In this document: in pieces, positions 6,384 through 46,406 of the stretch
How positions within the stretch are numbered: position 1 is the stretch's first letter
Layout: every line of letters starts with the position of its first letter
From: a virus
Lineage: Duplodnaviria; Heunggongvirae; Uroviricota; Caudoviricetes
Reading direction: 5' to 3' (one strand)
Length of the DNA: 50,937 nt
IMG/VR virus record: IMGVR_UViG_2541047814_000001
The notes under the pieces: model-generated
Told to the model about the DNA's origin: nothing
Databases searched by the model: none
What the model saw: only the letters and a program-made list of their open reading frames with translations
Position numbers and translations under genes: made by a program

Positions 6384-6450
6384 AATTACCTCTCGCTTTT
6401 CTGCAATAAAAAAGGCGCCATTTCTGGCGCCCGTATCTGGGTTATAAAAT

Positions 6451-26048: not shown

Positions 26049-26473
26049 CGGGAATCCTGGAGACTAAACTTCCTGAGAAAGAGGTAAACAGGATGACTAA
26101 AAATACTCGTTTTTCCCCCGAAGTCCGTCAACGGGCAGTCCGTATGGTTCTGGAAAGTCAGAGCGAATATGACTCACAATGGGCGACAATTTGTTCCATT
26201 GCTCCAAAGATTGGCTGTACGCCGGAGACTCTGCGTGTCTGGGTTCGCCAGCATGAGCGGGATACCGGGGGCGGTGATGGAGGGCTCACCACCGCTGAAC
26301 GTCAGCGTCTGAAAGAGCTGGAACGTGAAAATCGTGAACTGCGCCGCAGTAACGATATCCTTCGCCAGGCTTCCGCTTATTTTGCGAAGGCGGAGTTCGA
26401 CCGCCTCTGGAAAAAATGATGCCACTGCTGGATAAGCTGCGTGAGCAGTACGGGGTCGGACCGCTATGCAGCG
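26049..26473 (+). mobile_element. Truncated IS3-family element (IS629-like): left IR, orfA and the first ~20 codons of orfB
   Basis: Left end TGAACCGCCCCGGGAATCCTGGAGACTAAACTTCC; orfA complete; orfB frame ([19 protein letters not shown]) breaks after about 20 codons. Confidence 0.7.
26093..26419 (+). CDS. IS3-family transposase OrfA (108 aa, IS629-like)
   Basis: [23 protein letters not shown]... with HTH and leucine zipper typical of IS3 OrfA. Confidence 0.8.
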
Positions 26474-26765: not shown

Positions 26766-27528
26766 CATGGTGTTCACAGAACACGCAGTTACCGGACACA
26801 TCAGTTTTCCATTCGCTCCCCGGCAGTACAGGCTTCCCCTCTGACGGGATAGCCTGAAAAAATAACACAGAAAATTATTTGTTATAATTAATATAACTTA
26901 CTCAAAAAAAAGCGACGAGAAAATCAGCATCAACGAACAATAAGCGCCAATACGTGATAACAAATGGCAGCCATATTTATCTGCAGTATAAGCAATGGAC
27001 AGGATAACCACACCAGAAACCGTCAGCATAAAATCCACTTGAACTTCCCCGGACAAAATCGACTCATCTAAAGATTTACAGCTCTTTTTATTATCAATAT
27101 GTTAAAAGTAAAATAAACAGATGTTCAATAACACGAATACAAAAACGTGCTGAAATTCAATGAATCCATTTCTGTGTCATCAATTAATAGTGATAAACAT
27201 CCGGTTTCTTCCACCATCGCACCGGACAGGCGACTATGAGGGGACAACGCCGCGCTCCGTTAACGCGGTAAACCCCGGTGTGTATCGTTTTTGATTATCC
27301 CCGCACACTCGCGCAGAGGAGTCTCCCTGTCGGGCTGCGGTCTCTGTTAATGAGGGAATACAGCGACGATACGGCGCATCAACAAAACTTATTTCAGGCA
27401 CTGAGTACGGATATATTCCTGCGCCCCTTCCAGTTTATGAGACGACAATAACTCAGTCCGCCTGGCGCCGATTATTCTGGCCGGTTTTGTAACCTGAGTG
27501 TCATTTACATGATCCAACAGGAAATGGC

Positions 27529-29028
27529 GTGACGCTCAATACTTCTCAGGTCAGTTACTATATGACTCAGCGTAAGAAAGGTATAACTCAGCATATCTCG
27601 GCCATGAAGGCTGGTATCTCAGTCCGTTCTGGTCGTCGGATCGAAAAAGGAGAGTGGGCAAAAAACAGTGTTCGGCACTGGCGCACACGCAAAGATCCTC
27701 TGGAAGCTGTGTGGGACAGCATGCTTGTTCCTCTGTTGAAAGAGAGGCCGGCTCTGACACCAACAACTCTGCTGGAGATGCTACAGGATAAATATCCCGG
27801 CCAGTACCCCAACAGCCTTCGAAGAACAATGCAACGGCGGGTCCGCGAATGGAAGCTACAGTATGGTGCAGAGCAGGAGGTCATGTTCCGCCAGCGACAT
27901 CAGCCCGGTCTGCGAGGTCTGTCGGACTTTACTGAACTGAAAGGTGTAGTTGTCACCATCGCCGGTAAGTTGTTGGCGCATAAGTTGTATCACTTCCGTC
28001 TGGAATGGAGCCACTGGAGCTGGATGCGGGTTGTGCTGGGTGGTGAGAGCTTCTCTGCTCTGGCTGAAGGTCTGCAGGAAGCCCTCGGACAACTGGGCGG
28101 AGTGCCGGTAGAACATAAAACGGACAGCCTGAGGGCAGCATGGAAACAACAGGGCGAAGATGGACGCCGCGAGCTGACTGAGCGTTATGCTGCTCTCTGT
28201 CAGCACTACGGAATGCAGGGCGTACACAATAATGCCGGTCGGGGCCACGAAAATGGCTCGGTTGAAAGTGCCCACGGACATCTGAAAAGGCGTATCTGTC
28301 AGGCGCTGATACTGCGGGGCAGTAACGACTTCAGCACCATAGAAGAATATCAGGCCTTCATCACTCAGCAGGTTATGCGGCACAACCGTAACAATCAGGA
28401 TCTGGTCAAGGAAGAACGTCTTCATCTGAAACCGCTGCCGCTTCGTCGCAGTGCTGACTATGATGAGCTGACTGTGAGGGTTAGCCGCAGCAGTACCATC
28501 AATGTGAAGCACGTCGTCTACAGCGTACCTTCCCGGCTTGTAGGTCAACTGTTACGGGTCCGGTTATGGGACGATCGTCTGAGCTGTTACGTTGGCAGCA
28601 GCGAGGTCATGAGCTGCCCACGTGTCAGACCAGAAAAAGGGAAGACGCGGGCCCGTCGTATCGACTTCCGACATGTGATCGACAGTCTGGCAAAAAAGCC
28701 CGGTGCGTTCTGCCATGCAACGCTGAGAAATGACATCCTGCCAGACGATGAATGGCGGAGGCTGTGGCGTCGCTTATGTAATCATCTGGAACCCGACATG
28801 GCAGGCAGGCTGATGGTACATGCTCTGAAACTGGCTGCAGGATACGACGATATCTCAGTCGTGGCAAAAGGTATGGAGCAGATGCTGAATACCCCGGGAA
28901 ACGTGGATCTGCACCGGCTGATGCGCTTCCTGGGTATAAAGGAAAAGGCGTTGCCGGTAGTCAATGTGAAACAGCATAACCTGAGCAGTTATGAGCAACT
29001 ACTGCGTGGCAAGGGAGGTTCGCAGTGA
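27529..29028 (+). CDS. istA: IS21-family transposase IstA (499 aa)
   Basis: N-terminal HTH, DDE-type core, typical IstA length; followed by istB. Confidence 0.85.
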   Translation: MTLNTSQVSYYMTQRKKGITQHISAMKAGISVRSGRRIEKGEWAKNSVRHWRTRKDPLEAVWDSMLVPLLKERPALTPTTLLEMLQDKYPGQYPNSLRRTMQRRVREWKLQYGAEQEVMFRQRHQPGLRGLSDFTELKGVVVTIAGKLLAHKLYHFRLEWSHWSWMRVVLGGESFSALAEGLQEALGQLGGVPVEHKTDSLRAAWKQQGEDGRRELTERYAALCQHYGMQGVHNNAGRGHENGSVESAHGHLKRRICQALILRGSNDFSTIEEYQAFITQQVMRHNRNNQDLVKEERLHLKPLPLRRSADYDELTVRVSRSSTINVKHVVYSVPSRLVGQLLRVRLWDDRLSCYVGSSEVMSCPRVRPEKGKTRARRIDFRHVIDSLAKKPGAFCHATLRNDILPDDEWRRLWRRLCNHLEPDMAGRLMVHALKLAAGYDDISVVAKGMEQMLNTPGNVDLHRLMRFLGIKEKALPVVNVKQHNLSSYEQLLRGKGGSQ

Positions 29029-29780
29029 GCAATATCCATCACCTTGAACGCAGCCTGCGTAAACTACGCCTGACACGAGTTGGAGCTGAATGGCACGCTC
29101 TGGAAAAACGAGCACTGGCAGAAGGCTGGACACCATCGCGCTATCTTCTGACGCTATGCAATGAAGAACTCCTGTGGCGCGAGAGTGAAAAACTGCGTCG
29201 TTATAAAAAGGAGGCCCGGTTGCCAGTTGCCAAAACGCTAAGCGAATACGACTTCAGTCAGGTGCCGGAACTGAATGGAGCTCAGTTCCGGCAACTCTGT
29301 GAAACGACAGACTGGGTTGATGCAGGAGAAAACGTTCTGCTGTTCGGAGCCAGCGGGTTGGGGAAAAGCCATCTGGCGGCAGCGATCGTGGATGGCGTAG
29401 TAGGCCAGGGCTACCGGGCCCGGTTCTACAGCGCAGGAGAGTTGTTGCAGGAACTACGTAAAGCCAGAGCGCAGTTGAAACTGAATGAGCTGCTACTGAA
29501 ACTGGATCGCTACCGGGTGATAGTGGTGGATGATCTTGGCTATGTCAAACGCGACAGCGCCGAAACGGGAGTACTGTTCGAGTTAATAGCGCATCGCTAT
29601 GAACGTGGGAGCCTGGTGATAACCAGTAACCATCCGTTCAGCATGTGGGGCAGCATCTTCGTGGATGAGACTATGGCGGTGGCGGCGGCAGACCGGCTGA
29701 TCCATCACGGATATATGTTCGAACTGAAAGGTGAAAGCTACAGGAAAAAGACAGCGAAGGCAGTAACAAGCGCGACTTGA
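29025..29780 (+). CDS. istB: IS21-family ATP-binding helper IstB (251 aa)
   Basis: Walker A GASGLGKSHLA and Walker B VIVVDDLGY. Confidence 0.85.
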   Translation: MSNIHHLERSLRKLRLTRVGAEWHALEKRALAEGWTPSRYLLTLCNEELLWRESEKLRRYKKEARLPVAKTLSEYDFSQVPELNGAQFRQLCETTDWVDAGENVLLFGASGLGKSHLAAAIVDGVVGQGYRARFYSAGELLQELRKARAQLKLNELLLKLDRYRVIVVDDLGYVKRDSAETGVLFELIAHRYERGSLVITSNHPFSMWGSIFVDETMAVAAADRLIHHGYMFELKGESYRKKTAKAVTSAT

Positions 29781-29828
29781 TGTCGCACTGAAGGGTGCGG
29801 CCAGTATAGTTGGCGCGAGTCGGCAAAA

Positions 29829-30272
29829 CTAGTTGACGTCTAATACCAGTTGCTTCTGCATCGTCATCAGCCGCTCTCTGAGGGTGAAATAATCCCGTGT
29901 AACGGTGTCTGCCAGTTGGGGGCCGGTTGCATTATCCACGCGGGCGGTGCCGGTGGCTTCACGCACGGGACCTGGACAGGTGGCGTTGATACGCAGGCGC
30001 TTACGACCAGCGGCAACGTCAGCGCGAAGAGTTTCATTTTCAGCTTTCGCATCAGCTAACTCCTTCGTGTATTTTGCATCGAGCGCAGCAACATCACGCT
30101 GACGCATCTGCATGTCAGTAATTGCCGCGTTCGCCAGCTTCAGTTCTCTGACATTTTTGTCGCGCTGGGCTTTGTAGGTAATGGCGTTATCACGGTAATG
30201 ATTCAGCCCCAGACTAAGCGCACCACAGGCCACCAGCAGGGCAATGATGACCACGCACAGTACGCGGTTCAT
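29829..30272 (-). CDS. Rz: i-spanin Rz (147 aa)
   Basis: N-terminal TM segment then coiled coil; directly downstream of endolysin; contains embedded Rz1. Confidence 0.8.
29867..30052 (-). CDS. Rz1: o-spanin Rz1 lipoprotein, embedded in Rz in the +1 frame (61 aa)
   Basis: Lipobox ...VVSAC followed by proline-rich [29 protein letters not shown], as in lambda Rz1. Confidence 0.75.
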
Positions 30273-30570
30273 TTCACCACCAGCGTATCTGACCGATGAA
30301 ATAACCGGAGGCCATAATCACAAACACCAGCCAGATAAGAATGAACTTCCAGGTGGATAATTTTTCAGCCATCACTCGAATCTCCCGAATCAGTTTGCTA
30401 AAATCAAACACACTTTCTCCTTTGACTTTTCCGGAGTCAGGAAACACAAAACCCCGCTTGGTGCCAACAAACGGGGTTTTTACTTTTATTCACTTACGTT
30501 TCGCCAGTTCGCAGGATTTCGTGTTATCCGCCCGCGTGGCCATACCTTATTTTTCAGCAAAATATTCTGC

Positions 30571-31104
30571 TTATCTGTCGATTCCCCAGCACGCCAGCGC
30601 GCTCTCCTGGTCACGACGGGATACCTGACCGTAGCAGTTGTTTGAACGAATACGGCAGTCTCTGCCACCGTCCTTAATCCACCAGCGAATCGCCTCACAC
30701 GCTCCCCTGCGATCACCTGCATTAATTCGTTTATAAAACGTCGACGGGAAACACTTACCGGGACCAATGTTGTACGGACAGAATGACGCGATCCCCGCTT
30801 TCTGGGGTTCACTCAATGGCACTCTGATGTTTTTCTCCACCCATGCCAGCGCCTTATCACGCTCAATGGCGTTAACCCGGTCGCATTTTTCCTTCGACAA
30901 CTTCATGCCCGGAACGACAGGTTTGCCATCCACCAGGATGGCACCGCGGCAGATGGTCCAGATACCCGCACCATCACGGTATGCCGTGGTGTGGTTACCT
31001 TCCTTTTCATCCAGAAACTGGTCGAGAATGTCAGGCGCAGGCGCACCAGCGGCAATCAGCGCCAGAACGGCAGCCGACAGGCCGTATCTGATTTTTGCGT
31101 TCAT
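30571..31104 (-). CDS. R: Endolysin R, T4-type lysozyme (GH24) with SAR-like N-terminus (177 aa)
   Basis: E-D-T catalytic region DEKEGNHTTAYRDGAGIWTICRG; hydrophobic Ala/Gly-rich N-terminal segment. Confidence 0.85.
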   Translation of the reverse strand: MNAKIRYGLSAAVLALIAAGAPAPDILDQFLDEKEGNHTTAYRDGAGIWTICRGAILVDGKPVVPGMKLSKEKCDRVNAIERDKALAWVEKNIRVPLSEPQKAGIASFCPYNIGPGKCFPSTFYKRINAGDRRGACEAIRWWIKDGGRDCRIRSNNCYGQVSRRDQESALACWGIDR

Positions 31105-31209
31105 GGATATTTATCAGGATTTATCGGTTTCTGAGCCCTGGATATGTTTATCAGTTCCAGCCTGTTGCCTCAGGCTGCTAACAGGTCAATACAATCATGA
31201 GGATTATTT

Positions 31210-31482
31210 ATGGACAATAACACCATTTCTCTACAGGAGTTGCTCGACAGCATTTCCAGGCTTCGGGAAGACGTGAATACCCTTACCGTCGCCTTCTCAT
31301 ATCTGGCATTCTCAATTCCAAGGGAACAGATGCAATCAACGCTGGCATCAATCCAGTTTGAATCATGCAATCCCAAATGGTCTCAGGAACAACAAGACTC
31401 TTTCAGGCGGCTTGCTGTATTACTGGATGAAAAATATGCTGGTAAAATTACCATTTCGGCGGACTCTTCAGAGAACCCGTAA
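31210..31482 (+). CDS. Hypothetical protein (90 aa) antisense within the lysis cassette
   Basis: GAGGA RBS 6 nt upstream of ATG; upstream TTGCCT...TACAAT promoter-like elements; non-repetitive composition; overlaps the 3' end of the YdfR-like gene. Confidence 0.35.
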   Translation: MDNNTISLQELLDSISRLREDVNTLTVAFSYLAFSIPREQMQSTLASIQFESCNPKWSQEQQDSFRRLAVLLDEKYAGKITISADSSENP

Positions 31483-31792
31483 TTATTCCCGGTAGTTTTC
31501 CTCTGTAGGTTATCAACACATCCTGCGCCTCTAAAATTACGGGGCGCTTTTCCGGCGACTGCTCATCCCCTTCACATAACCCGGCAGCAACATCCAGGAA
31601 GACCTGTCTGATGCTCCTTCTGGCTGCTGCCTCATAAAACTCCAGCGCGGCACCTTCAACACGGTCCAGCGAGATGTCCAGGTCAAAAATTTCACCGTCA
31701 AAGCGTTTTTTGTCCCGTAACGCTAAAGTTACCGTAACTTTATTCTCAAAATTGCGGATCCCTTTCACAATCAGTTCATAGTTTTGAGTCAT
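31448..31792 (-). CDS. YdfR-like (DUF1327-like) protein between holin and endolysin (114 aa)
   Basis: Position matches ydfR between essQ and rrrQ in Qin; family assignment from memory. Confidence 0.5.
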   Translation of the reverse strand: MTQNYELIVKGIRNFENKVTVTLALRDKKRFDGEIFDLDISLDRVEGAALEFYEAAARRSIRQVFLDVAAGLCEGDEQSPEKRPVILEAQDVLITYRGKLPGIITGSLKSPPKW

Positions 31793-31796
31793 TGAA

Positions 31797-32012
31797 TTAC
31801 TCTCCCCGTGCAGCCTTACGACGGTCCTCTCTGATTTTGAAATACAGGTTAGTCAGATATGTCAGCAGCCCAAACAGCAGACTCCCCAGCACGCCTATTG
31901 CCGCCCACTGAGACGGGGAAACCCTGTCCAGCAACTGCAGGAACCAGTAGCCCGTTCCCACCGCTGACGTGGTGTATGACACACCTGTTGTGATTTTTTC
32001 CATCTGGTACAT
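31797..32012 (-). CDS. S: Class II holin / pinholin, S21-like (71 aa, possible dual start MYQM)
   Basis: [67 protein letters not shown] closely resembles phage 21 S. Confidence 0.8.
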
Positions 32013-32044
32013 ACCCCGTCTCCCGTTATCCGGAAGCTGACAAC

Positions 32045-32078
32045 AATAAAAAAAGCCACCAGTTAAGTACTGATGGCT
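32045..32078 (-). terminator. Hairpin plus T7 terminator between nanS-p and the holin (minus strand)
   Basis: Minus strand GCCATCAGTACTTAACTGGTGGC followed by TTTTTTT. Confidence 0.5.
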
Positions 32079-32162
32079 CTGATAACTCATGCAGGCATCT
32101 CAGACGACCCACTGACACTACCGGTGAGTTTAACGATACCTTCCATTTGGCTGGCTCACTTT

Positions 32163-34016
32163 TTATGATGATGCCGGTGCATTTATCTCCAGCACCAGAC
32201 TTTCTATCTCAACGCCATACGCTGCATTTTTGGTAATATCCGTCAGCGTCAGCGCATTCAGCCCCAGTGTCAGACTGTCTTTTATGACCTGGAATGCCGG
32301 GCCAGCCACTCCATTCAGTTTCGGAGTAACCGTGGCACTGCCGGCGGTGAACACCAGCTCCAGCGTCTGCCAGTCGTTACTGTAATTCCCGAACTCGCCC
32401 AACTTTGTGTTTCCTGCTTTCTTGTGATGCATCAGATTCAGTTTGCCGTCTGTGGTCTGGGTGAAGAACGACATCAGGAACGGGTTACCAGTCCCGGTCA
32501 TCGCCACGACGTCAGGTAACGCTACATCGGTATACAGATAAATTCCCAGACCGAACTGGTTGTTGGTCAGTGCGCCTGACAGTCGAAACTTACAGCTCAG
32601 TCTGCCACCCCGTGTCAGCAGGGAGACTGCGTCATCCACCGGGCGCGTCAGGGACCAGGCTTTATTGCTCTGCTTGGTGATCTTAAATACACCATCTGAC
32701 AACTGAATTCCGCCATTCTTAATGCTCCAGCCCTGCGCAGCAGCGTCTCCGGCTGTCGGCAACAGGGAGATTGTGCGTATGGATGCATCTTCAGACGGCC
32801 CCGATGGCGTGTCGCCGCCGGGCGAGGCTTTGATTTCCGGTGCCTTACCACTAATGAAGGCTAAGGTGCGACCGGCTACGTTCAGAATAGCCGTTGCCAT
32901 ACGATCGGGAATAATGCCACGACGCGCCCATGAGCTGAAATGCGTCGGGCGATTTGATGATACCCAGTTTTTGTTCGTTCGGGATGCCGAACCGTAATAA
33001 CCAGACCCGGCAATATCAGGATCTTCTGACGGGTTGTTTGTCGGTGTATTAACTCCGCTACCATCGGTCATAAAGGGAACAAAATAAATCTGCTGGGATT
33101 CTTTACCTTTATATGCACCATATACCACTTCATATTGCGTACCGTGTTCTTGTTTCCACGCGTATGTCGTGTCGCCACAAATCCAGGGGACTGATGCCGG
33201 ACTTCCACCGTGACACTGCGCCGCCAGCCCGGCAAGGTCAGCACGGAACTGCTGTACCATTGCAAGAAATGCTGCTGGCTGCTGGGCGTAACTGGCATTC
33301 GTCATATCGAATTCCCCCTGCATCCAGCATATCGCCAGCAAAACGTTTTTCGGGTTTTTCTGCAATGCTGCCTTCGTGCGGAAAAGCAGATCCTGATATA
33401 ACGGCTTACCCACTCCCCAGCGAGCCGAATCCTGACTGGCTCCCGTGGACTCGCTGAATGTCCCCTCCGTGCCCTGGGTGAATGCCGAACCACCACGACA
33501 GCATGGTACCAGCAGGATCCCCGCATTATTAGGGATATACGGAAGCAGTTTTTTGGCAATATGTAAGCCCTGTCCGACACAGCCGTACTGCCCTTTGCTC
33601 AGGTCAGCCCGGGGATGGTTAATCGTACTCATATCCTGAACATCATGCAGACAATGGTCAGCAGGAATGATGTCGTTAAATACGCATACTTCACCACCGG
33701 GAGTCACTGTGTTACGACGGGCCAGTTGCTTAATGCGCGGATGGGGCGCATCGTATGAATCCGGAAGCGGAAGCCCTTCACCGTAAGCCATGGCATTGGA
33801 TTGCCCGGCCAGTACGATGACGTAGTACCACTCCGGCTCAGTTGCACCACTGACGACCACATCACCTTCTGCTGCAATCGCCTGCATCAGGGTATAAGGG
33901 GTTATGGCCACCGGACTACCAAACGGCTGCCAGCCCTCCTTCAGTTTTTGTGTCAGTCGTTTCGCAAGGTCTGACGGCGATGCCGCCCTGACCACGTCAT
34001 AGTGTTTAAATGCCAT
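32163..34016 (-). CDS. nanS-p: Prophage sialate O-acetylesterase NanS-p-like (DUF1737 N-terminus + SGNH/SASA esterase, 617 aa)
   Basis: SGNH motif LAGQSNAMAYGEG; N-terminal MAFKHYDVVRAASPSDLAKRL domain; position downstream of Q/tRNAs as in Stx phages. Confidence 0.75.
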   Translation of the reverse strand: MAFKHYDVVRAASPSDLAKRLTQKLKEGWQPFGSPVAITPYTLMQAIAAEGDVVVSGATEPEWYYVIVLAGQSNAMAYGEGLPLPDSYDAPHPRIKQLARRNTVTPGGEVCVFNDIIPADHCLHDVQDMSTINHPRADLSKGQYGCVGQGLHIAKKLLPYIPNNAGILLVPCCRGGSAFTQGTEGTFSESTGASQDSARWGVGKPLYQDLLFRTKAALQKNPKNVLLAICWMQGEFDMTNASYAQQPAAFLAMVQQFRADLAGLAAQCHGGSPASVPWICGDTTYAWKQEHGTQYEVVYGAYKGKESQQIYFVPFMTDGSGVNTPTNNPSEDPDIAGSGYYGSASRTNKNWVSSNRPTHFSSWARRGIIPDRMATAILNVAGRTLAFISGKAPEIKASPGGDTPSGPSEDASIRTISLLPTAGDAAAQGWSIKNGGIQLSDGVFKITKQSNKAWSLTRPVDDAVSLLTRGGRLSCKFRLSGALTNNQFGLGIYLYTDVALPDVVAMTGTGNPFLMSFFTQTTDGKLNLMHHKKAGNTKLGEFGNYSNDWQTLELVFTAGSATVTPKLNGVAGPAFQVIKDSLTLGLNALTLTDITKNAAYGVEIESLVLEINAPASS

Positions 34017-34209
34017 GAATCCTCCCGGGCGGGATAATGTTGTGAGTCAGATAAGGAGCAGGCTGAAGTCCGGAAGTTACAGGACAATGGCAGAAGGGAG
34101 ACTACAGCCCGCAATTCGAAAAAGACCGCGCAGTTGCGCAGAGTGATTACTATGGGGTATTATTCGCCAGCTGAAATATTACTTCACGTTTTATTGTTTA
34201 TTCCTTGCC

Positions 34210-34238
34210 GCCCGCGTCTCCCAGCGCGGGCTTTTTTT
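34210..34238 (+). terminator. Plus-strand rho-independent terminator (GCCCGCG-loop-CGCGGGC + T7)
   Basis: 7-bp GC stem and T7 read directly; a candidate promoter (TTGCGC - 18 nt - TATTAT, 34134-34163) lies about 50 nt upstream on the same strand. Confidence 0.55.
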
Positions 34239-34241
34239 GTC

Positions 34242-34430
34242 CATAAGAAAGCCCCTCCGGAGAGGGGCTAAAGCCGCGTATCTGTATCATCATGCACATG
34301 GTGCCGGGTGCCTCCCGGTGAGTTCAGCCCGGTGCCACTAAACCCGCGTCATTCTCGTTTTGATAATCAGAGATTATACCGTCACCAGTCGCCCCTCCGC
34401 TCAGGGGGATTCACCATGCGAAATTTTTTT
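34242..34430. repeat. Direct repeat unit 1 (about 180 bp, imperfect) with GCCCCTCCGGAGAGGGGC hairpin
   Basis: Shares blocks with 34735-34915 (aaagcccctccggagaggggct, ggtgccgggtgcctcccggtga, cccctccgc.cagggggattcaccatgc, tgaattgtgag). Confidence 0.6.
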
Positions 34431-34734
34431 AACAAATGCCCAGTCTGACAGGCAACTGTCAACTTACTGAATTGTGAGCAACATAGCATTTAACGGGGAA
34501 CCTGTTTTCTGCAGTAAAAAGGCCCACCGGAGCGGATGGGCCTGGAAGGATAGCGGTCATGTGATGCCGGTTTCCCGGTAACTCAGCACCGGTATCTGAG
34601 TCAACGTTTTCTCTACTGGGTCATTTCCGATACGCCCTGCCTGCTGACAGGCTTTCATCACATCTGAAAATATAGCACCCTGACTGATACTGTAGTACCT
34701 AAGGTTCCAGAAACTGTGATGTATCCGGCACAGA

Positions 34735-34915
34735 AAAGCCCCTCCGGAGAGGGGCTGGAGAGTGGCGCTATGTGCCATTGCATGGTGCCGGGTGCCTCCC
34801 GGTGAATTCAGTACCAGCACCTGAATCCGCGATTATCCCATATACCTACTCGCTGATTGCCCCTCCGCACAGGGGGATTCACCATGCCAGTTTCTTTTAA
34901 CAAACTCCCCGCAAA
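34735..34915. repeat. Direct repeat unit 2 (partner of 34242-34430)
   Basis: Same conserved blocks in the same order and orientation. Confidence 0.6.
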
Positions 34916-34989
34916 CCAGACAACAGTCAACCGCCTGAATTGTGAGACATTTAAAAAAAGCCCGCAAAAGCGAGCCAGGGAAAATAAGT

Positions 34990-35067
34990 GTGGCGCGTTG
35001 TACTGGATTCGAACCAGTGACCGATTGCTTAGAAGGCAATTGCTCTGTCCGGCTGAGCTAACAACGC
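34990..35067 (-). tRNA. tRNA-Arg (anticodon UCU)
   Basis: Minus strand folds as cloverleaf; anticodon loop CTTCTAA; T-loop TTCGAAT; 3' CCA encoded. Confidence 0.8.
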
Positions 35068-35080
35068 AGGATACAGATAA

Positions 35081-35157
35081 TGGACCGCCTTCGGGGACCC
35101 GAACTCCGCGCAACCAGCTTCGAAAGCTGGCGCTCTTTCCTGATGAGCTAATGGCGG
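35081..35157 (-). tRNA. tRNA-like gene, probably Arg (anticodon read as UCG); atypical T-arm
   Basis: D-arm GCTC...GAGC, anticodon stem CCAGC/GCTGG with loop TTTCGAA, CCA end; T-stem has one mismatch and T-loop is TTCGGGT. Confidence 0.45.
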
Positions 35158-35164
35158 TATGTGA

Positions 35165-35240
35165 TGGTGGCCCTTGCTGGATTTGAACCAGCGACCTGGC
35201 GATTATGAGTCGCTCGCTCTCACCACTGAGCTAAAGGGCC
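35165..35240 (-). tRNA. tRNA-Ile2-like (anticodon CAU; ileX/ileZ type)
   Basis: GGCCCTTTAGCTCAGTGGTGAGAGCGAGCGACTCATAATCGC...GGGCCACCA; near-canonical cloverleaf, 76 nt. Confidence 0.85.
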
Positions 35241-35289
35241 GGGAGCAGAATAATAATGGTGCGTAATTAATTCTGCAATCTCATCCGTT

Positions 35290-36339
35290 TCAAACGATTA
35301 AATCCTGAACTTCCCTGACTGTCTGCTCAAAACGTCCGGTCTCCAGTTCAACGCCAATCGCACGACGCCCAAGCGCCAGTGCCGCTTTTACCGTTGAACC
35401 TGAGCCCATAAAAAAATCTGCAACCAGGTCACCCGGACGACTGCTTGCGCTGATTATCTGCTGCAGCATTTCTGCCGGTTTTTCGCACGGATGTTTCCCG
35501 GGATAGAACTGCACCGGTTTATGTGTCCACACATCCGTGTACGGCACCTGCGCCGTCACACCAAAATACCGCCGCAGATGCTTATATTCACTCTGCAGCT
35601 CCACATACTGCCGGTTCAGTGACGTATACGTATCCACCAGCTGGTGGTGGGGCTTTTCCAGTTCACCGCGCTGATGTTTCTCTTCTGCCACCCGGGCAAA
35701 CAGCGACTGTAATTTCAGATAATCGCTTTCGTTCGGTAGCTGCCACTGACTGGCACTGAACCAGTGCGACACCATGTTTTTCTTTCCTGTGGCATCTGCA
35801 ATCTGTTTTGCCGTTATCCCCAGGGCAGCGCGCGCATCACGAAAGTAAGAAATCAGCGGGGCCATCACATGCTGTTTCAGTGCACTGCCCTTCGCCGCAT
35901 ACCCGGCATCTTTCGGACGATACGGCCCCTGATAATGTTCCGCGAACAGAATGCGCTCTGTGGCGGGGAAATACGCCCGCAGGCTTTCCTTGTTGCATCC
36001 GTTCCAGCGTCCGGACGGCTTCGCCCAGATAATATGGTTCAGCACACTGAAGCGTTCACGCATCATGATTTCGATATCAGATGCCAGGCGATGACCACAG
36101 AACAGGTAAAGACTTCCGACAGGTTTCAGCACCCGCCAGAACTGCGCCAGACACTGGTCCAGCCACTTCAGGTAATCATCGTCGCCCTTCCACTGGTTAT
36201 CCCAGCCCTCAGGCTTCACTTTAAAGTACGGCGGGTCCGTGACTATCAGGTCAACAGAATTTTCGGGTAACGACCGGATAAATTCCAGGCAGTCGGCGTT
36301 GATTAACTCACAACTGGATATTTTTACAGTATTAAGCAT
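35290..36339 (-). CDS. DNA methyltransferase (N6-adenine/N4-cytosine type, DPPY motif, 349 aa)
   Basis: Catalytic motif IVTDPPYF; C-terminal SAM-binding FFMGSGST; position between Q and the tRNAs. Confidence 0.8.
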   Translation of the reverse strand: MLNTVKISSCELINADCLEFIRSLPENSVDLIVTDPPYFKVKPEGWDNQWKGDDDYLKWLDQCLAQFWRVLKPVGSLYLFCGHRLASDIEIMMRERFSVLNHIIWAKPSGRWNGCNKESLRAYFPATERILFAEHYQGPYRPKDAGYAAKGSALKQHVMAPLISYFRDARAALGITAKQIADATGKKNMVSHWFSASQWQLPNESDYLKLQSLFARVAEEKHQRGELEKPHHQLVDTYTSLNRQYVELQSEYKHLRRYFGVTAQVPYTDVWTHKPVQFYPGKHPCEKPAEMLQQIISASSRPGDLVADFFMGSGSTVKAALALGRRAIGVELETGRFEQTVREVQDLIV

Positions 36340-36489
36340 GGATCATTAAGCCTGTCTCTGATAGGCTCATTCTGCTTTTGCGCAAAGCAGTGGGCCTGAG
36401 GTTTGCTTGTGAACCCAACGCATGAGCAGATGGCTGGTGGGTGCCCCTAACACCCACCAGCCGCCCATTTACCACAAATAAAAAAGCCT

Positions 36490-36687
36490 TCAGGACTGAA
36501 GGCGTCTGTAACAACCGAACTGATAGTCTGCCAGACCCGCCATAACCAGCTGGGTCAGTATTAACTGGCAGCGTTCGCGTGAAAGGTAAGTATTCTGCGC
36601 TATCTCCCCGACTGTCGCCGGTTCGGTAACGCTTAATTCATTAAACACCACTCTGGCGGTTTCTGTCATATCCTGCTGTTTTAGCAT
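36490..36687 (-). CDS. Small hypothetical protein, possible winged-helix DNA-binding (65 aa from MLKQQD...)
   Basis: AAGGA-like RBS upstream of internal ATG; helix-turn-helix-like TVGEIAQNTYLSRERCQLILTQLVMAGL. Confidence 0.4.
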   Translation of the reverse strand: MLKQQDMTETARVVFNELSVTEPATVGEIAQNTYLSRERCQLILTQLVMAGLADYQFGCYRRLQS

Positions 36688-36807
36688 GTCTTTTTCCTTT
36701 TTCCGGTTAACGTGACATACCAATAACTCTTGTCGAAAAAGCCAGCAAGCTGAAAGACCCGTATTCGCAACCACCAGCGTGTTTACTGTACTGACGCGAT
36801 TTTGGGC

Positions 36808-36834
36808 ATAAAAAAAAACCGCCTGACGGCAGTT
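36808..36834 (-). terminator. tR'-like terminator just downstream of the Q-like gene (also a hairpin + T8 on the plus strand)
   Basis: Minus strand AAAAAAAA-CTGCCGTCAGGCGG-TTTTTTTTT; imperfect stem, long T tract. Confidence 0.5.
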
Positions 36835-36874
36835 TTTTTTCTTACTTTGCCATCGCGTACAAAATCGGCAAAAT

Positions 36875-36915
36875 ATCAGATTTATACGAAACGTACGCTA
36901 TTTAATTGACTTTTG
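36875..36915 (-). promoter_or_regulatory. Candidate late promoter PR' with -10 TATAAA immediately after the Q stop
   Basis: TATAAA (plus 36881-36886) about 16 nt 3' of the Q stop; -35 is weak; a start here would give a short 6S-like leader ending at the tR'-like terminator. Confidence 0.3.
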
Positions 36916-37591
36916 CAATATCTCGTCGTGAAAAAGTCGCTTTTTGTTGCGCTCTTATTTTCACGGTGCAAATCACAGATTCTCTATCGAGACTCTTAAA
37001 AATATCGCACATCTCACGCCAGTAGTTCGCATAATTATGGCTCCAGTTATCAGGCTTAACTCCACACAGTCTGGCAAGCTCCTGTCTCTGGTAGACCTCA
37101 CACCCGGTAATCCATCCTCTGACATCCTGTGCCGCCAGCCAGATCAACTTCTTCACGCGCTCCTGCGTTTTCCCTGCAATTTTTCTGGTGCCGTACCGGG
37201 TTTTAAATTCATTCCACACCCACTGCGTTATCGCGATCTGATATTCCCAACAAATACTCCCGCTGTAACACCACAACAACCAGGCTTTATGATGTTCTTC
37301 AAGAGACAGAACAGCCCGCCGCCACGATGATGTCGAAAACTCAACCGGACTGACGAGAGGAATTGACACCCCCTTCGCCAGCGATTGCTTTCCCGGGATT
37401 GGTGGATTATCCCGCGTTATCATTTTTCCAGTCACTTCATCGCGGTACCGGATTTTTTTACGCCTGTAACGCCCTGTATCAAACATGGCATTCTCCTGCC
37501 AGGCCTCAAGCTGCCCTTTTGTTGATCCACTCAAATCGGCGGTGGCAATCATGAGTTGCTCACGAACAAACTGTAAATACTGGTTATTCAT
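36902..37591 (-). CDS. Antitermination protein Q-like (229 aa)
   Basis: Position between rusA and the PR'/tR'-like signals and late genes; size similar to Qin-type Q. No diagnostic motif confirmed by eye. Confidence 0.5.
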   Translation of the reverse strand: MNNQYLQFVREQLMIATADLSGSTKGQLEAWQENAMFDTGRYRRKKIRYRDEVTGKMITRDNPPIPGKQSLAKGVSIPLVSPVEFSTSSWRRAVLSLEEHHKAWLLWCYSGSICWEYQIAITQWVWNEFKTRYGTRKIAGKTQERVKKLIWLAAQDVRGWITGCEVYQRQELARLCGVKPDNWSHNYANYWREMCDIFKSLDRESVICTVKIRAQQKATFSRRDIAKVN

Positions 37592-37953
37592 GCGTACTCC
37601 AGTTCTGTGATTTTTATCCCCAACCGCCCACCAGGAACAAGCTGACCGCGCACAATATTAATTTCATCAAACTGCTCGTCGTCTATGAGCAGCCCCGCAT
37701 GCGTCAGTACATCCAGTGGTGCCTTCAGGATATTGTCCAGGTCACGACGGCGCTTATCCGGTGGCTCTGCAATAATTTCTATTGCCGGCCTTCCGGACAG
37801 GTTTAATTTCAGTTGCTGCTGGCGAACAATAAGCGCCACATCACGGCGATAACGCTCACCGACTTTTGATACAAAATATGTGCTGCCACGACGTCGCCAG
37901 TAAGTGTTCACCGTTGGCGGGTAAGGCAAAACAAATTCTATGCGTTCAGTCAT
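37588..37953 (-). CDS. rusA: Holliday junction resolvase RusA (121 aa)
   Basis: PPTVNTYWRRRG and RRRDLDNILKAPLDVLTHAGLLIDDEQ match RusA catalytic-core motifs. Confidence 0.85.
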   Translation of the reverse strand: MTERIEFVLPYPPTVNTYWRRRGSTYFVSKVGERYRRDVALIVRQQQLKLNLSGRPAIEIIAEPPDKRRRDLDNILKAPLDVLTHAGLLIDDEQFDEINIVRGQLVPGGRLGIKITELEYA

Positions 37954-39009
37954 TTATGCTTTCCACTTCAGAACACCCGAATTTCTCGCGTGCATTAAAA
38001 AACGAATCAGCAACAACAGCTGGCTGCCGTGTTTTTCTTCAAAATCTTTTACCCCGGCGTGTAGTTCGCTATGGCATTTACGGCACAGCGGAATAACAAA
38101 CAAATCATCAGCCTTTGTTCCCATCCCTCCCAGTCCATGACCAATGATGTGATGCGGATCATCTGCCTGATTGCCACACGTCATGCATTTCTGCGTTTTT
38201 ACCCAACGCGTGTATACAGGCATCTCTTCCCGTTGTGATTTCTGGCGCTGGAGATACTGAGCCGGTGACTCCGGATCAACGGCAATGCTGACCACCGTCT
38301 TTTCCTGTGGCGGGTTTTGCTGGTGGGCGTGAGGCAGCGGCGCAAGATTTTTTGTGCGCTGCTTCAGTATGCTGGTGGCGGTCTGCTCTCCCGGTACGAT
38401 GTCGCTTTCACGGTACATTGAGCGGATTTTTTCCGCACGCAACCCCAGCGAACGACGTAATACCGCTTCCGGTAGCGCGTCCGCCACCTGATTGCGGACC
38501 GCCCACCAGGATAATTCAGCCAGCGATAATTCCCGCTCCTGCGAGCCATTCATTGCATGGCGTATGACGTCAATCATCCATGCAGACAGGTTTTGGTGAG
38601 CAAGTTGCCCGAGTGATTCGGAGGTCTGGTCGCGCAGCTGGTTGTCGCAGTGCCAGCACAACACCATTGCGCCGGTACCATAACGGTGAATGACGGTTTC
38701 ACTGTGGTGATAATCGCCGTGTGGCCACTGGCAGGATTTAACATGGCGCAGTAACCAGTCAGACAATGCGCCAGCGCCACCAGCAGCACGAATCACTCGT
38801 TCGTCGCTGAAAAATGGCAGTAATGATTTATCCTCCGCCAGCGGCTGGCGAACGGCAGGAACGACCCCGGACGGCAGATTACGCATGCTTTTCGGTTCCG
38901 GCTCCACCAGTACCCGGGTATTGTGGAATACCGGCATGGATTCACGGCCCGGCTTAACGATCACCAGCCCGAGTTCCGGTACCAGAACAGGTCGAAGTAA
39001 TACCCGCAC
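37954..39009 (-). CDS. DUF968-like protein with C-terminal HNH-like Cys/His cluster (351 aa)
   Basis: CMTCGNQADDPHHIIGHGLGGMGTKADDLFVIPLCRKCHSELH; position upstream of rusA/Q as ydfU in Qin (from memory). Confidence 0.55.
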   Translation of the reverse strand: MRVLLRPVLVPELGLVIVKPGRESMPVFHNTRVLVEPEPKSMRNLPSGVVPAVRQPLAEDKSLLPFFSDERVIRAAGGAGALSDWLLRHVKSCQWPHGDYHHSETVIHRYGTGAMVLCWHCDNQLRDQTSESLGQLAHQNLSAWMIDVIRHAMNGSQERELSLAELSWWAVRNQVADALPEAVLRRSLGLRAEKIRSMYRESDIVPGEQTATSILKQRTKNLAPLPHAHQQNPPQEKTVVSIAVDPESPAQYLQRQKSQREEMPVYTRWVKTQKCMTCGNQADDPHHIIGHGLGGMGTKADDLFVIPLCRKCHSELHAGVKDFEEKHGSQLLLLIRFLMHARNSGVLKWKA

Positions 39010-39010
39010 G

Positions 39011-39283
39011 TTACCTCCAGATGCGTTGCTGGAATGTGCGGGACGGACGCGGTGGGCGTTCAGAGTAAGGAAGCCTGACGGAGATTATCCAGTGACGATA
39101 ATCGAGGCTGAGGGCTTTCTTAATCTCGTATCCGCGTCTGCGGTAGTTATGAATTAGCCATTCGGCCTGTTCTTCAGTACATGGTGGGTGTTGGTACCAG
39201 TCGGTTTTAAATGCGTGTGAACGCCGCCCATGCCGGATGGCAAGGTCGGTATCAGAATTGTGAAATTTGGTTTTGTGCGCCAT
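39011..39283 (-). CDS. Hypothetical phage protein (90 aa)
   Basis: ORF abutting the DUF968-like gene; no motif recognised. Confidence 0.4.
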   Translation of the reverse strand: MAHKTKFHNSDTDLAIRHGRRSHAFKTDWYQHPPCTEEQAEWLIHNYRRRGYEIKKALSLDYRHWIISVRLPYSERPPRPSRTFQQRIWR

Positions 39284-39450
39284 CTGTTTTCTCTGCTGGC
39301 GCAGCAGGTGTCAGGTGTTCAGGCTGACGTGCGAATTGTAAACCAGAATGCCAGAAAAAAACAAAACCCGCCGAAGCGGGTTAAGTGCGGGTGCGTTGAG
39401 GATGCCTGACACATCAGAGGTGGCGAGGGATTTCTCCCCCGCCAGGTCTC

Positions 39451-39606
39451 TTACTCCTCAGGTTCGTAAGCTGTGAAGACAGCGACCTCCGTCTGGCCGG
39501 TTCGGAGTCGTACCTCGCAGAGGTCTTTCCTCGTTACCAGTGCCGTCACTATGACGGTTAAACAGATGACGATCAGGGCGATTAACATCGCCTTTTGCTG
39601 CTTCAT
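39451..39606 (-). CDS. hok: Hok/Gef-family type I toxin (51 aa)
   Basis: MKQQKAMLIALIVICLTVIVTALVTRKDLCEVRLRTGQTEVAVFTAYEPEE is a near-canonical Hok sequence; the in-frame upstream extension is probably leader, not coding. Confidence 0.85.
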   Translation of the reverse strand: MKQQKAMLIALIVICLTVIVTALVTRKDLCEVRLRTGQTEVAVFTAYEPEE

Positions 39607-39843
39607 AGCCTGCTTCCCCTTGCCTTTCGGCACGTAAGAGGCTAACCTACATTTGTGAGACATAGATTGGGCCTCAGATTAATGTTAAGCGTCTTGCAGG
39701 ACGCGAAATGTTAACTGGGGCTTTTCTCTATCTGCCTTTCAGTGTTCATGCCTGAGACAGATAGCCTCAAGCACCCGCAGCCATTCTACTTAACTCACGT
39801 CACCTCGCCAATATGAAATCAATCAGAAAGGTGATCCATAAAA

Positions 39844-40530
39844 TCACTCCTTCTCTTCTTTTCCGTAGTGGAGTTGGCCAATTTTGATAAGAGGGCGTCC
39901 CTGAGATTTGCGGTGTAGATTGGTATCGCGCAGAGAATACACACAGCCACAATATTCCTGCTGATAGAATTTTTCGCGCTTGCTGATTTCAATCATACGG
40001 GACGAGCCGCCCTGCTTGCGCCAGTTATAATCCCAGTACACCATACCCGGATAATGCGCAACAGCTCGCCGCCCACACTCGTTAACCTGCTGCATATTTT
40101 TCCAGCGTGAAATGCCCAGTGAACTGCTGATCACACTGAAACCATTTTCAGCAGCGTACAACGCTGTCCGCTCAAAACGCATGTCAAAACACATGGTACA
40201 ACGGATCCCCCTCTCAGGCTCCCATTCCATTCCTTTGGCACGTTCAAACCAGTTGTCGGTGTCGTAATCAGCATCGATAAACGGCACGCCGTGTTGTTCA
40301 GCAAAGCGAATATTTTCATCCTTACGAATTAAATACTCTTTCTGAGGATGAATGTTCGGGTTGTAGAAAAAGATGGTGTAGTCGATTCCCGAGGCCTGAA
40401 GCGCCTCCATCACTTCACCGGAACATGGAGCACAGCAAGAGTGCAGTAGTAGTTTGTTTGCCCCGTTTGGGAGCTCCAATTTAGGCCGTTTGAAATCAGC
40501 AATAGTCATAAATATTTTTATTGGGGTCAT
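39844..40530 (-). CDS. queH: Epoxyqueuosine reductase QueH-like (DUF208, 228 aa)
   Basis: Conserved Cys motifs [28 protein letters not shown] and [11 protein letters not shown], as I recall for the DUF208/QueH family. Confidence 0.7.
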
Positions 40531-40683
40531 GAAAATAGCACAGAGTGTAGCATCAGAGCAGGTCTATCGGGAATATATGTCTAAATCTGGTAATATCTGG
40601 TTTTGACGCAAAGCGGACAACCACGCTGGCTCTACCCTGCGCCATGAAAATGTCAATTCACATCTGAACTAATGCTCTTTAAT

Positions 40684-41124
40684 CTAGTAACGTCTAAAAT
40701 ACCTAACATTTCCTTGATAAAATGCCAGTACACGCTGCATAGCTTCGCTCTTCCGGCACTCGCGACAGATTATATTCAGGCGCCTGTCGTAGCGGCGTAT
40801 TTCGCCGTCTGGTAACGACCAGATAAGGTCCGGATCAACCACTGCAGGTTTCTTCACCTTTGCCCTTGAGAGTTTTTTGCGAGCATTTTGCCAGTCCTTA
40901 CGCGCCTGTTCAGACGGGAATAACCCGTAACCAGAGTTGTATACATCGCCACTGGCAACCAGCTCTCTGGCGAGAACACTCATCAGATATCTTGTCGCAC
41001 CTGTCCTGGCTTCCAGTTGCCGCAACGTCTCGCGACCGCTCAGACGTACAAGTTCAACAACCTGCCCTTTAATTTTTTCCCGCTCTTCTTGTGTAAATAC
41101 TTTTGCCATAAGCGCCTCCGGCAA
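40684..41124 (-). CDS. Hypothetical phage protein (146 aa)
   Basis: ORF in the nin-like region; C-terminal CxxC (CRECRK); no family recognised. Confidence 0.45.
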   Translation of the reverse strand: MPEALMAKVFTQEEREKIKGQVVELVRLSGRETLRQLEARTGATRYLMSVLARELVASGDVYNSGYGLFPSEQARKDWQNARKKLSRAKVKKPAVVDPDLIWSLPDGEIRRYDRRLNIICRECRKSEAMQRVLAFYQGNVRYFRRY

Positions 41125-46348: not shown

Positions 46349-46406
46349 TTTCTGGTGACGTTTGGCGGTATCAGTTTTACTCCGTGACTGCTCTGCCGCC
46401 CTTTTT
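46349..46406 (+). ncRNA. dicF: DicF sRNA (53 nt plus T-tract terminator)
   Basis: TTTCTGGTGACGTTTGGCGGTATCAGTTTTACTCCGTGACTGCTCTGCCGCCC followed by TTTTT matches the DicF sequence as I recall it; lies upstream of dicB as in Qin. Confidence 0.65.

Follow-up and report, generated by a model that had tools for sequence, protein, structure and literature searches.

The interval between the last tRNA gene and the sialate esterase gene nanS-p in the Caudoviricetes record IMGVR_UViG_2541047814_000001 (IMG/VR; the whole stretch of DNA analysed, here called the window, is 50,937 nt) is very probably a cluster of four small-RNA (sRNA) transcription units. The cluster would fill the 'moron' slot that follows the Q-dependent late promoter in a lambdoid prophage of the non-Stx type. 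Positions are given in window numbering, and the late region of this prophage reads on the minus strand. Three tandem late-strand units, A, B and C, are, as judged from their sequences, paralogues within the STnc100/EcOnc27/PasD superfamily, and a fourth, opposed unit is a homologue of EcOnc08/21/42. On this reading the 'empty' toxin slot holds regulatory RNA genes and is not a deletion scar. An earlier note on this DNA had offered three readings of a repeat pair in the interval: processed RNA elements, duplicated terminator/leader units, or scars of cargo exchange. The first is supported by the matches to the Rfam STnc100 model and the second describes a side effect. The third is not supported: in every unit a promoter-like element and an intrinsic terminator are retained, together with a conserved four-branch fold that shows compensatory changes.

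Family identity and fold of the late-strand units

Family identity, fold, terminators, synteny and distribution are direct results of the analysis. The Rfam scan that the earlier note had proposed shows that both repeats are full-length matches to RF02076 (STnc100), a structured-RNA family. Copies A and C lie above the curated gathering threshold of 47 bits (Table 1) and both span model positions 1-206, which makes them members of STnc100; chance matches are far outside expectation at these E-values. The repeats and their GCCCCTC...GAGGGGC hairpins are present where that note had placed them, and copies A and C are 69% identical over approximately 236 aligned bases. A repeat search finds an 88-nt pair with 80% identity (34391-34478 and 34859-34946) and a 31-nt pair with 97% identity (34297-34327 and 34781-34811). 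An identical 22-nt hairpin, AGCCCCTCCGGAGAGGGGCT, is found in both repeats (34248-34269 and 34735-34756). Features missing from the earlier note are the third unit (34514-34687), the convergent plus-strand RNA gene with its terminator (34210-34238), and a minus-strand terminator (34141-34126).

The predicted core RNA of copy A extends from 34887 to about 34733 and has the linker AAUGGCACAUAGCGCCACUCUCC and a terminator at 34756-34737. That of copy C extends from 34419 to about 34245, with the linker UGCAUGAUGAUACAGAUACGCGGCUUU and a terminator at 34269-34250. Copy A has 99.4% identity to the single copy in Sakai prophage Sp4. Copy C is 78% identical to Sakai EcOnc27 and 87% identical to the copy in Stx2a phage KH16-043; judged by position and flanks, it is the orthologue of EcOnc27/sRNA103.

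Independent minimum free energy folds of A, B and C display the same architecture, which is that of the STnc100/PasD superfamily. It is a four-branch fold in which a long-range closing helix surrounds hairpins and is followed by a single-stranded linker and an intrinsic terminator. In A and C the closing helix is GCAUGGUG/CACCAUGC and the first hairpin is CCCCC/GGGGG; in B the corresponding elements are AUGUGAUG/CAUCACAU (34663-34656/34566-34559) and GCCUG/CAGGC. The other members of the fold are a CUCAG...CUGAG hairpin and a CCGG-GAAA-CCGG hairpin. RNAalifold, applied to ten family members (A, B and C from the window and from PhiR5_2, together with those of KH16-043, Sp5, Sp15 and PasD2), predicts 35 pairs. 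Twelve of these show compensatory changes, several of them contributed by B, including the closing helix of B. The fold z-scores are -2.83 for copy A and -2.77 for copy B.

Copy B is only 39-49% identical to other members and is filed here as a diverged relative of the same architecture, not as a curated STnc100 member. It has the linker GACCGCUAUCCUUCC, a strong terminator (34543-34520) followed by U5, and an extended -10 element TGCUAUAUU / TGCTATATT (34677-34669) at the right distance upstream. It is found in 673 of 5426 complete E. coli genomes (~12%) as two alleles, at least 99% and approximately 91% identical to the window copy. Further occurrences are in five non-Stx phages, 116 IMG/VR contigs and the type strain of E. 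albertii, and in 97 of 115 IMG/VR loci it has an STnc100 copy on each side. Between the two alleles the core of about 130 nt and the linker are identical; hairpin 1 and the terminator have been remodelled with the pairing kept.

These comparisons bear on the proposal that the repeats are non-functional leftovers, i.e., duplicated intergenic DNA or scars from the loss or exchange of cargo such as stx. The slot is a known site of cargo exchange, linkers have been shuffled between phages, and single-copy, hybrid and IS (insertion sequence)-disrupted versions of the locus exist, e.g., in Sp4, where A is fused to the region downstream of C, and in prophage PP6 of enteropathogenic E. coli (EPEC), which carries ISEc13. 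Leftovers would nevertheless not be expected to give full-length matches to a structured-RNA model, as A and C do, or to have kept, as A, B and C all have, a promoter-like element, a fold and a terminator. Unrelated E. coli lineages carry the array with 100% conservation, the core and linker of B are identical between alleles that differ elsewhere, and homologues are expressed (PMC5331693). The leftover explanation is therefore improbable.

The convergent RNA, promoters and terminators

The plus-strand RNA gene is opposed to copy C. Its terminator (34210-34231, followed by U7 to 34238) is approximately 11 nt from that of copy C, such that the two sRNA genes meet terminator to terminator between the late promoter PR' and the lysis genes; the flanks match those of the dyad in Sakai Sp5. 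Over the length of the gene, including the terminator and a CCUUGCC seed (34203-34209, +), Sp4 and EPEC PP6 align with hardly any differences, which identifies it as an EcOnc08/21/42 homologue. The homologues are the EPEC sRNA E2348C_1409.E2348C_1408.IGR (NC_011601 1444797-1444978), found by RNA interaction by ligation and sequencing (RIL-seq), and EcOnc08/EcOnc21 in Sakai Sp4 (PMC8550237 Table S6/Fig S5; PMC4104026 Table S2). EcOnc08/21/42 was positive in UV cross-linking and analysis of cDNA (CRAC) with Hfq and gives a Northern band of ~271 nt (PMC4104026 Table S2). The lengths given for the homologues differ, with 182 nt annotated in EPEC vs the ~271-nt band in Sakai. Candidate promoters in the window are at 34010-34038, or TTGCGC-N18-TATTAT at 34134-34163. 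The RNA is antisense to the nanS-p leader. The target motif in EPEC is GGCAAGG/GGCAGGG (cfa, dppA, tir, emrA; PMC8550237 supplement), and this is complementary to CCUUGCC.

A cassette of ~95 bp, unrelated in sequence to AsxR, replaces the AsxR cassette between conserved flanks and is also found in Stx2a phage KH16-043. An identity of the plus-strand element with AsxR or AgvB was rejected: positions 34017-34300 have no RF02703 or RF02702 match at E <= 10, and the positive control, Sakai Sp5, scores 88 and 41 bits. OmrA-B (25 bits, 34150-34238), anti-hemB, sRNA71 and other sub-threshold Rfam matches at 34140-34270 are driven by the terminators and were treated as chance.

The promoters of A, B and C are proposed from alignment to the mapped start of PasD2 and from extended -10 motifs. 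PasD2, an RNA of 172 nt, begins at the G of GCAUGGUG, with TTGACT-N18-TAAAAA upstream. Copies A and C show TTGTCT/TTGCCT-N18-TAAAAG/TAAAAA in the matching register. A conserved box precedes both copies and also precedes Sakai EcOnc27, where positions 6390-6422 of the Sakai extract match 34949-34917 and 34477-34449 by blastn. An extended -10-like sequence of copy C, TGCUAUGUU / TGCTATGTT, is at 34488-34480. The EcOnc27 bands of 235/247 nt point to a second candidate start, which would lie about 50 nt upstream of the first, close to the conserved CUCACAAUUCAG box, and in copy C would go with the -10-like sequence just named. The indications for the 5' end of STnc100 RNAs conflict. The EcOnc27 Northern sizes imply a start upstream of the Rfam model. 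Positions 1-30 of RF02076 (34916-34888 and 34448-34420 in the window) align to PasD2 promoter DNA, upstream of the PasD2 5' end.

The motif CUCACA, the target of the PasD seed UGUGAG in RIL-seq, is found three times on the late strand, in the boxes upstream of A (34946-34941) and C (34478-34473) and at 34046-34041, some 25 nt ahead of the start codon of nanS-p. A PasD RNA from another prophage could in principle pair at these sites.

Terminator-like sites are abundant: there are 10 in positions 33900-35400, compared with 1.4 +/- 1.2 in shuffled sequences. Five late-strand terminator-like hairpins lie within 860 bp (at 34976, 34756, 34543, 34269 and 34141). The first, T0, is the hairpin and T7 that the earlier note had described after the last tRNA gene; it reads GGCUCGC-UUUU-GCGGGCU followed by U7, with the stem at 34976-34959 and the T-run reaching 34952. 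It matches the tRNA-to-stx2A spacer of Sakai Sp5 at 88.6% and is thus conserved upstream of stx2. The fifth, in the nanS-p leader, is CUGCGCAACUGCGCGG followed by UCUUUUU and is invariant in Sakai Sp5 and KH16-043.

This density of terminators raises the possibility that the main role of the interval is in cis, with the terminator stack and the antisense RNA insulating nanS-p and the lysis genes against read-through in a lysogen and setting Q dependence, and the RNAs being by-products. The location of the slot between PR'/tRNAs and the lysis cassette fits such a role, as does the overlap of the plus-strand RNA with the nanS-p leader; a ~271-nt form would cover the ribosome-binding site and start codon. 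However, about 30 nt would be enough for a terminator, whereas the multi-branch scaffold that is conserved with compensatory changes is 120 nt long, and the U-tracts of A and C are weak (UUUUCUGU and UUUCUUAU). Homologues are abundant, stable and Hfq-bound and have trans partners in RIL-seq (PMC4104026, PMC8550237), and a single copy suffices in most related prophages, e.g., Sp4. A mainly cis-acting role is judged rather unlikely, but it does not exclude the sRNA reading. Read-through control in cis is a compatible secondary function as well as the chief rival interpretation.

Proposed roles of the RNAs

The reading of the interval as an sRNA gene cluster has a background in work on homologues. 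STnc100 is a prophage-borne sRNA family; strain EDL933 has 11 copies, all transcribed, and a Northern blot has confirmed one of them, STnc100_4 (PMC5331693). The Hfq-bound EcOnc27/sRNA103 is encoded by the copy that follows stx2B at a distance of 75 nt (PMC12711010, PMC12370729, PMC7873438); this RNA is Hfq-CRAC positive with Northern bands of ~235/247 nt (PMC4104026 Table S2). The RNAs PasD1/PasD2 of EPEC E2348/69 (Pearl Mizrahi 2021) are structural relatives of STnc100, and pasD is directly upstream of a sialate esterase gene (2026 preprint, 10.64898/2026.05.13.724894), the same position that copy C has here. Northern and RIL-seq evidence identifies PasD as a discrete Hfq-associated RNA. By analogy with EcOnc27, STnc100_4 and PasD, the homologues for which this is known, A, B and C may be expressed as discrete Hfq-associated small RNAs.

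For the copies in the window, the start sites, the Hfq dependence and the targets are predictions. Each unit would consist of a promoter-like element, a closing helix around a multi-branch scaffold, a single-stranded C/U-rich linker of 15-27 nt and an intrinsic terminator. The linker differs in each copy (the ends are ...CACUCUCC in A, ...CUAUCCUUCC in B and ...GAUACGCGGCUUU in C) and is probably the seed; it is proposed as the pairing region because the PasD RIL-seq seed UGUGAG lies in the same segment. In a lysogen the units would be transcribed independently, and their products would regulate host mRNAs through base pairing that depends on Hfq. The plus-strand RNA may pair through CCUUGCC with GGCAAGG sites such as those in the cfa and dppA leaders. 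Once the prophage is induced, RNA polymerase modified by Q would pass all five terminators of the late strand and transcribe nanS-p and the lysis genes. When Q is absent, the stack of terminators may keep transcription of the tRNAs and sRNAs out of the lysis cassette.

Several points weigh against the sRNA interpretation. Fold z-scores are modest for C (-1.6) and for the plus-strand RNA (-1.2). The two candidate starts of each unit, a PasD-like start at GCAUGG and one ~50 nt upstream, disagree, and a scan for consensus sigma-70 promoters gave no site on the minus strand. Copy B scores 30.1 bits, under the Rfam gathering threshold of 47, and is thus not an STnc100 member by that measure; its alleles, two main ones and a few singletons across the 116 IMG/VR contigs, give thin covariation for B alone. 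STnc100 members are also without an established direct target, and the effects of sRNA103 on fimZ and espA were seen under overexpression only (PMC12711010, PMC7873438).

A further, tentative proposal, which we consider possible but doubtful, is that the array is a modular display of seeds. The conserved STnc100 scaffold, perhaps a handle for Hfq or RNase E, would carry an exchangeable linker that is shuffled by prophage recombination, and tandem copies would deploy several seeds. Copy B may then be a previously unrecognised third subfamily that is restricted to non-Stx phages, with its 130-nt core and CCUUCC linker invariant between alleles. The basis for this proposal is the exchange of the linker between closing helix and terminator among scaffolds: an A-type linker, CAAUGGCACAUAGCGCCACUCUCC, is on a C-like body in Stx1 prophage Sp15, and a close variant of it is in the C position of PhiR5_2.

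The locus and its relation to known systems

The window is 99.96% identical, over 29846-40992, to the prophage of E. coli O7:K1 strain CE10. The RefSeq gene order there is Q, hypothetical protein, DNA methyltransferase, tRNA-Ile/Arg/Arg, SASA-family esterase (nanS-p type), holin and lysozyme. This agrees with the Q-to-holin layout and stx-equivalent slot that the earlier note had recognised, and the flanks match the Sakai stx2 spacer. The slot is bordered upstream by the three phage tRNA genes (34991..35240, -), and nanS-p is the first late gene downstream of the array. The last tRNA gene and nanS-p are 974 bp apart.

Table 1. Features of the slot and its borders in window coordinates
Feature	Position	Strand	Evidence
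349-aa open reading frame (ORF)	35290..36339	-	ORF list
tRNA-Ile2(CAT)	35165-35240	-	ARAGORN, Rfam tRNA matches, CE10 RefSeq annotation
tRNA-Arg(TCG)	35081-35157	-	ARAGORN, Rfam tRNA matches, CE10 RefSeq annotation
tRNA-Arg(TCT)	34991-35067	-	ARAGORN, Rfam tRNA matches, CE10 RefSeq annotation
Intrinsic terminator T0, directly after tRNA-Arg(TCT)	34952..34976	-	Terminator scan
Conserved upstream box before copy A (..UCUCACAAUUCAGG..GUUGACUGUUGUCUG..), candidate promoter elements	34917..34949	-	blastn, alignment
STnc100 copy A	34726-34916	-	Rfam RF02076, 136.3 bits, E = 7.8e-31
Copy B, diverged paralogue	34514-34687	-	RF02076, 30.1 bits, E = 0.0012 (7-kb search)
Same conserved upstream box before copy C	34449..34477	-	blastn, alignment
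STnc100 copy C	34239-34448	-	Rfam RF02076, 165.4 bits, E = 2.7e-38
Plus-strand sRNA gene, EcOnc08/21/42 family	34057-34238 (approx.)	+	~90-95% identity to EPEC and Sakai Sp4 homologues
Fifth late-strand terminator-like hairpin, nanS-p leader	34119..34141 (stem 34141-34126)	-	Terminator scan
nanS-p-type SASA-family sialate esterase, 617-aa ORF	32163..34016	-	ORF list, CE10 annotation WP_000874512.1

Neither intact nor degraded stxAB coding sequence was detected, in agreement with the absence of toxin genes reported in the earlier note. Searches by tblastn with Stx1A/B and Stx2A/B from Sakai over the whole window give a best E of 0.56, with only noise in the interval, and blastn of the stx loci matches the flanks only. 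A degraded stx operon still present in the slot, for which synteny is the sole argument, has in view of these searches a negligible probability.

The same note had seen no credible ORF in the interval. ORFs located wholly within it are 40-87 aa in length, have GTG or TTG starts, and are without Shine-Dalgarno sequences or Pfam matches. A role in encoding small proteins, either by an 87-aa GTG ORF at 34820..34557 or by a 42-aa ORF corresponding to the RefSeq pseudogene fragment, is nevertheless suggested by existing annotation. The RefSeq pipeline (Prokaryotic Genome Annotation Pipeline, PGAP) places a 126-bp 'hypothetical protein' pseudogene fragment at 34772-34897 (+), antisense to STnc100 copy A; this dubious pseudo-coding sequence is the sole annotation of the CE10 interval, whose RNAs are unannotated. 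The PhiR5_2 depositors annotated hypothetical coding sequences across copies A and B, and some EDL933 STnc100 copies show ribosome footprints (PMC5331693). The ORFs overlap the RNA scaffolds on either strand, though, and show no conservation pattern; differences between the window and PhiR5_2 are paired changes in RNA helices and indels. A protein-coding function is thus very improbable, and the pseudogene fragment and PhiR5_2 coding sequences are probably spurious calls over RNA genes.

Elsewhere in the window, a segment of ~2.4 kb (27436-29845) is absent from the CE10 prophage, which is otherwise 99.7-99.96% identical. It has a 499-aa ORF (27529..29028) and an overlapping 251-aa ORF (29025..29780) with the Walker A motif GASGLGKSH, and looks like a putative IS21-family istA/istB insertion in the lysis/Rz region. 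Other Rfam matches above the gathering threshold are IS009 (2062-2260, -, 225 bits) and the ALIL pseudoknot of an IS3-type element (26374-26473, +, 76 bits). Further matches are the sok antitoxin RNA by hokD (39601-39776, -, 120 bits) and DicF (46350-46401, +, 77 bits). The intergenic region between nanS-p and holin (32013-32162, -) is 100% identical to EPEC E2348/69 PP6 and ends in a strong hairpin with U7 (GCCAUCAGUACUUAACUGGUGGC-UUUUUUU), a possible 3'-UTR (untranslated region)-derived RNA. A PasA/PasC homologue at this position was rejected, as nothing in the window matches the intergenic region of E2348/69 PP2.

The RNA array has counterparts at the same site in other prophages. At the 'moron' site, 3' of PR', sRNA genes occur in convergent pairs, for example EcOnc27 and AsxR downstream of stx2B (Tree et al. 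2014, PMC4104026 section 13), and at least 8 Sakai prophages have dyads of Hfq-binding sRNAs that separate the late promoter from the lysis genes (PMC7873438). In Sakai Sp5, STnc100 (207 bits, extract 6423-6628, +) and a convergent AsxR (88 bits, 6630-6682, -) are located between stx2B and nanS-p. An alignment with this Stx2 phage, also proposed in the earlier note, shows that the tRNA-to-stx2A spacer matches window 34983-34949 (T0) and that the 30 nt before EcOnc27 match the boxes before A and C; because of these two matches, stx2AB would insert at approximately 34949/34950. In the non-Stx prophage Sp4, the tRNAs and T0 are followed by its counterpart of copy A and then directly by the convergent sRNA and nanS-p. 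In PhiR5_2 the A-B-C-plus-convergent array is complete and the tRNAs are absent. The 974-bp interval is present at 100% identity in many sequenced E. coli that are not Shiga toxin-producing (non-STEC), and at least 80% of it is covered in 353 of 5426 genomes. From this comparison, the window locus is read as an expanded version of the common single-dyad locus.

In EPEC E2348/69 PP6, a 5' GCATGGTGAATCC motif (1578-1590) is found just upstream of ISEc13 (1612-2985), and a 138-nt stretch just downstream of it (3151-3288) is 100% identical to the 3' part of copy A. The STnc100 gene of PP6 thus appears to be split by the ISEc13 insertion.

The STnc100 family brackets stx in enterohaemorrhagic E. 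coli and is statistically linked to variation downstream of stx2B that is associated with haemolytic uraemic syndrome (PMC12711010). An expanded form of this sRNA dyad is found in non-STEC strains, including extraintestinal pathogenic and avian pathogenic E. coli as well as CE10, a neonatal-meningitis strain, and in RefSeq the array is unannotated or labelled as a hypothetical-protein pseudogene. The locus is built from kinds of element already known, namely STnc100 sRNAs, a convergent dyad at the moron site and an sRNA of the EcOnc08/21/42 type. The tandem three-copy array and the diverged B paralogue both appear not to be described in the literature searched and are incremental additions; recognising B is a small annotation gain and not a new biological principle.

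Among known systems, A and C resemble STnc100/EcOnc27/sRNA103 in position (between tRNAs or stx and nanS-p on the late strand), closing helix, hairpins and the GCCCCUCUCCGGAGGGGC terminator. The window differs from the EcOnc27 locus in having three tandem units instead of one, with linkers between closing helix and terminator that are unlike that of EcOnc27. With PasD1/PasD2 the units share the 5' scaffold (GCAUGGUGAAUCC...GGAGGGGC; CGGGAGGC..CCAUGC), the position upstream of a sialate esterase gene and a similar promoter spacing. The identity is 41-49%, however, and the window copies lack the PasD terminator GGCUGCGCAUUGCGCAGCC-U8 and the PasD seed UGUGAG; TGTGAG is absent from the minus strand of the interval, and the units are thus not PasD1/PasD2. 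The Pas copies are also dispersed and not tandem (Zhu, Shabalina, Storz 2026 preprint, 10.64898/2026.05.13.724894). The plus-strand RNA is like EcOnc08/21/42 of Sakai Sp4 and Sp15 in its terminator, CCUUGCC seed, orientation convergent to STnc100 and antisense relation to the esterase leader, and differs by a few substitutions. AsxR/AgvB have the same slot and orientation, with AsxR of Sp5 located where the plus-strand RNA of the window is found, convergent with STnc100. OmrA/OmrB, PrrF1/PrrF2 and Qrr1-5 are, like the array, neighbouring sRNA paralogues that share a scaffold while each has a terminator of its own; these are core-genome genes with near-identical seeds, whereas the array described here is phage-borne and its predicted seeds differ between copies.

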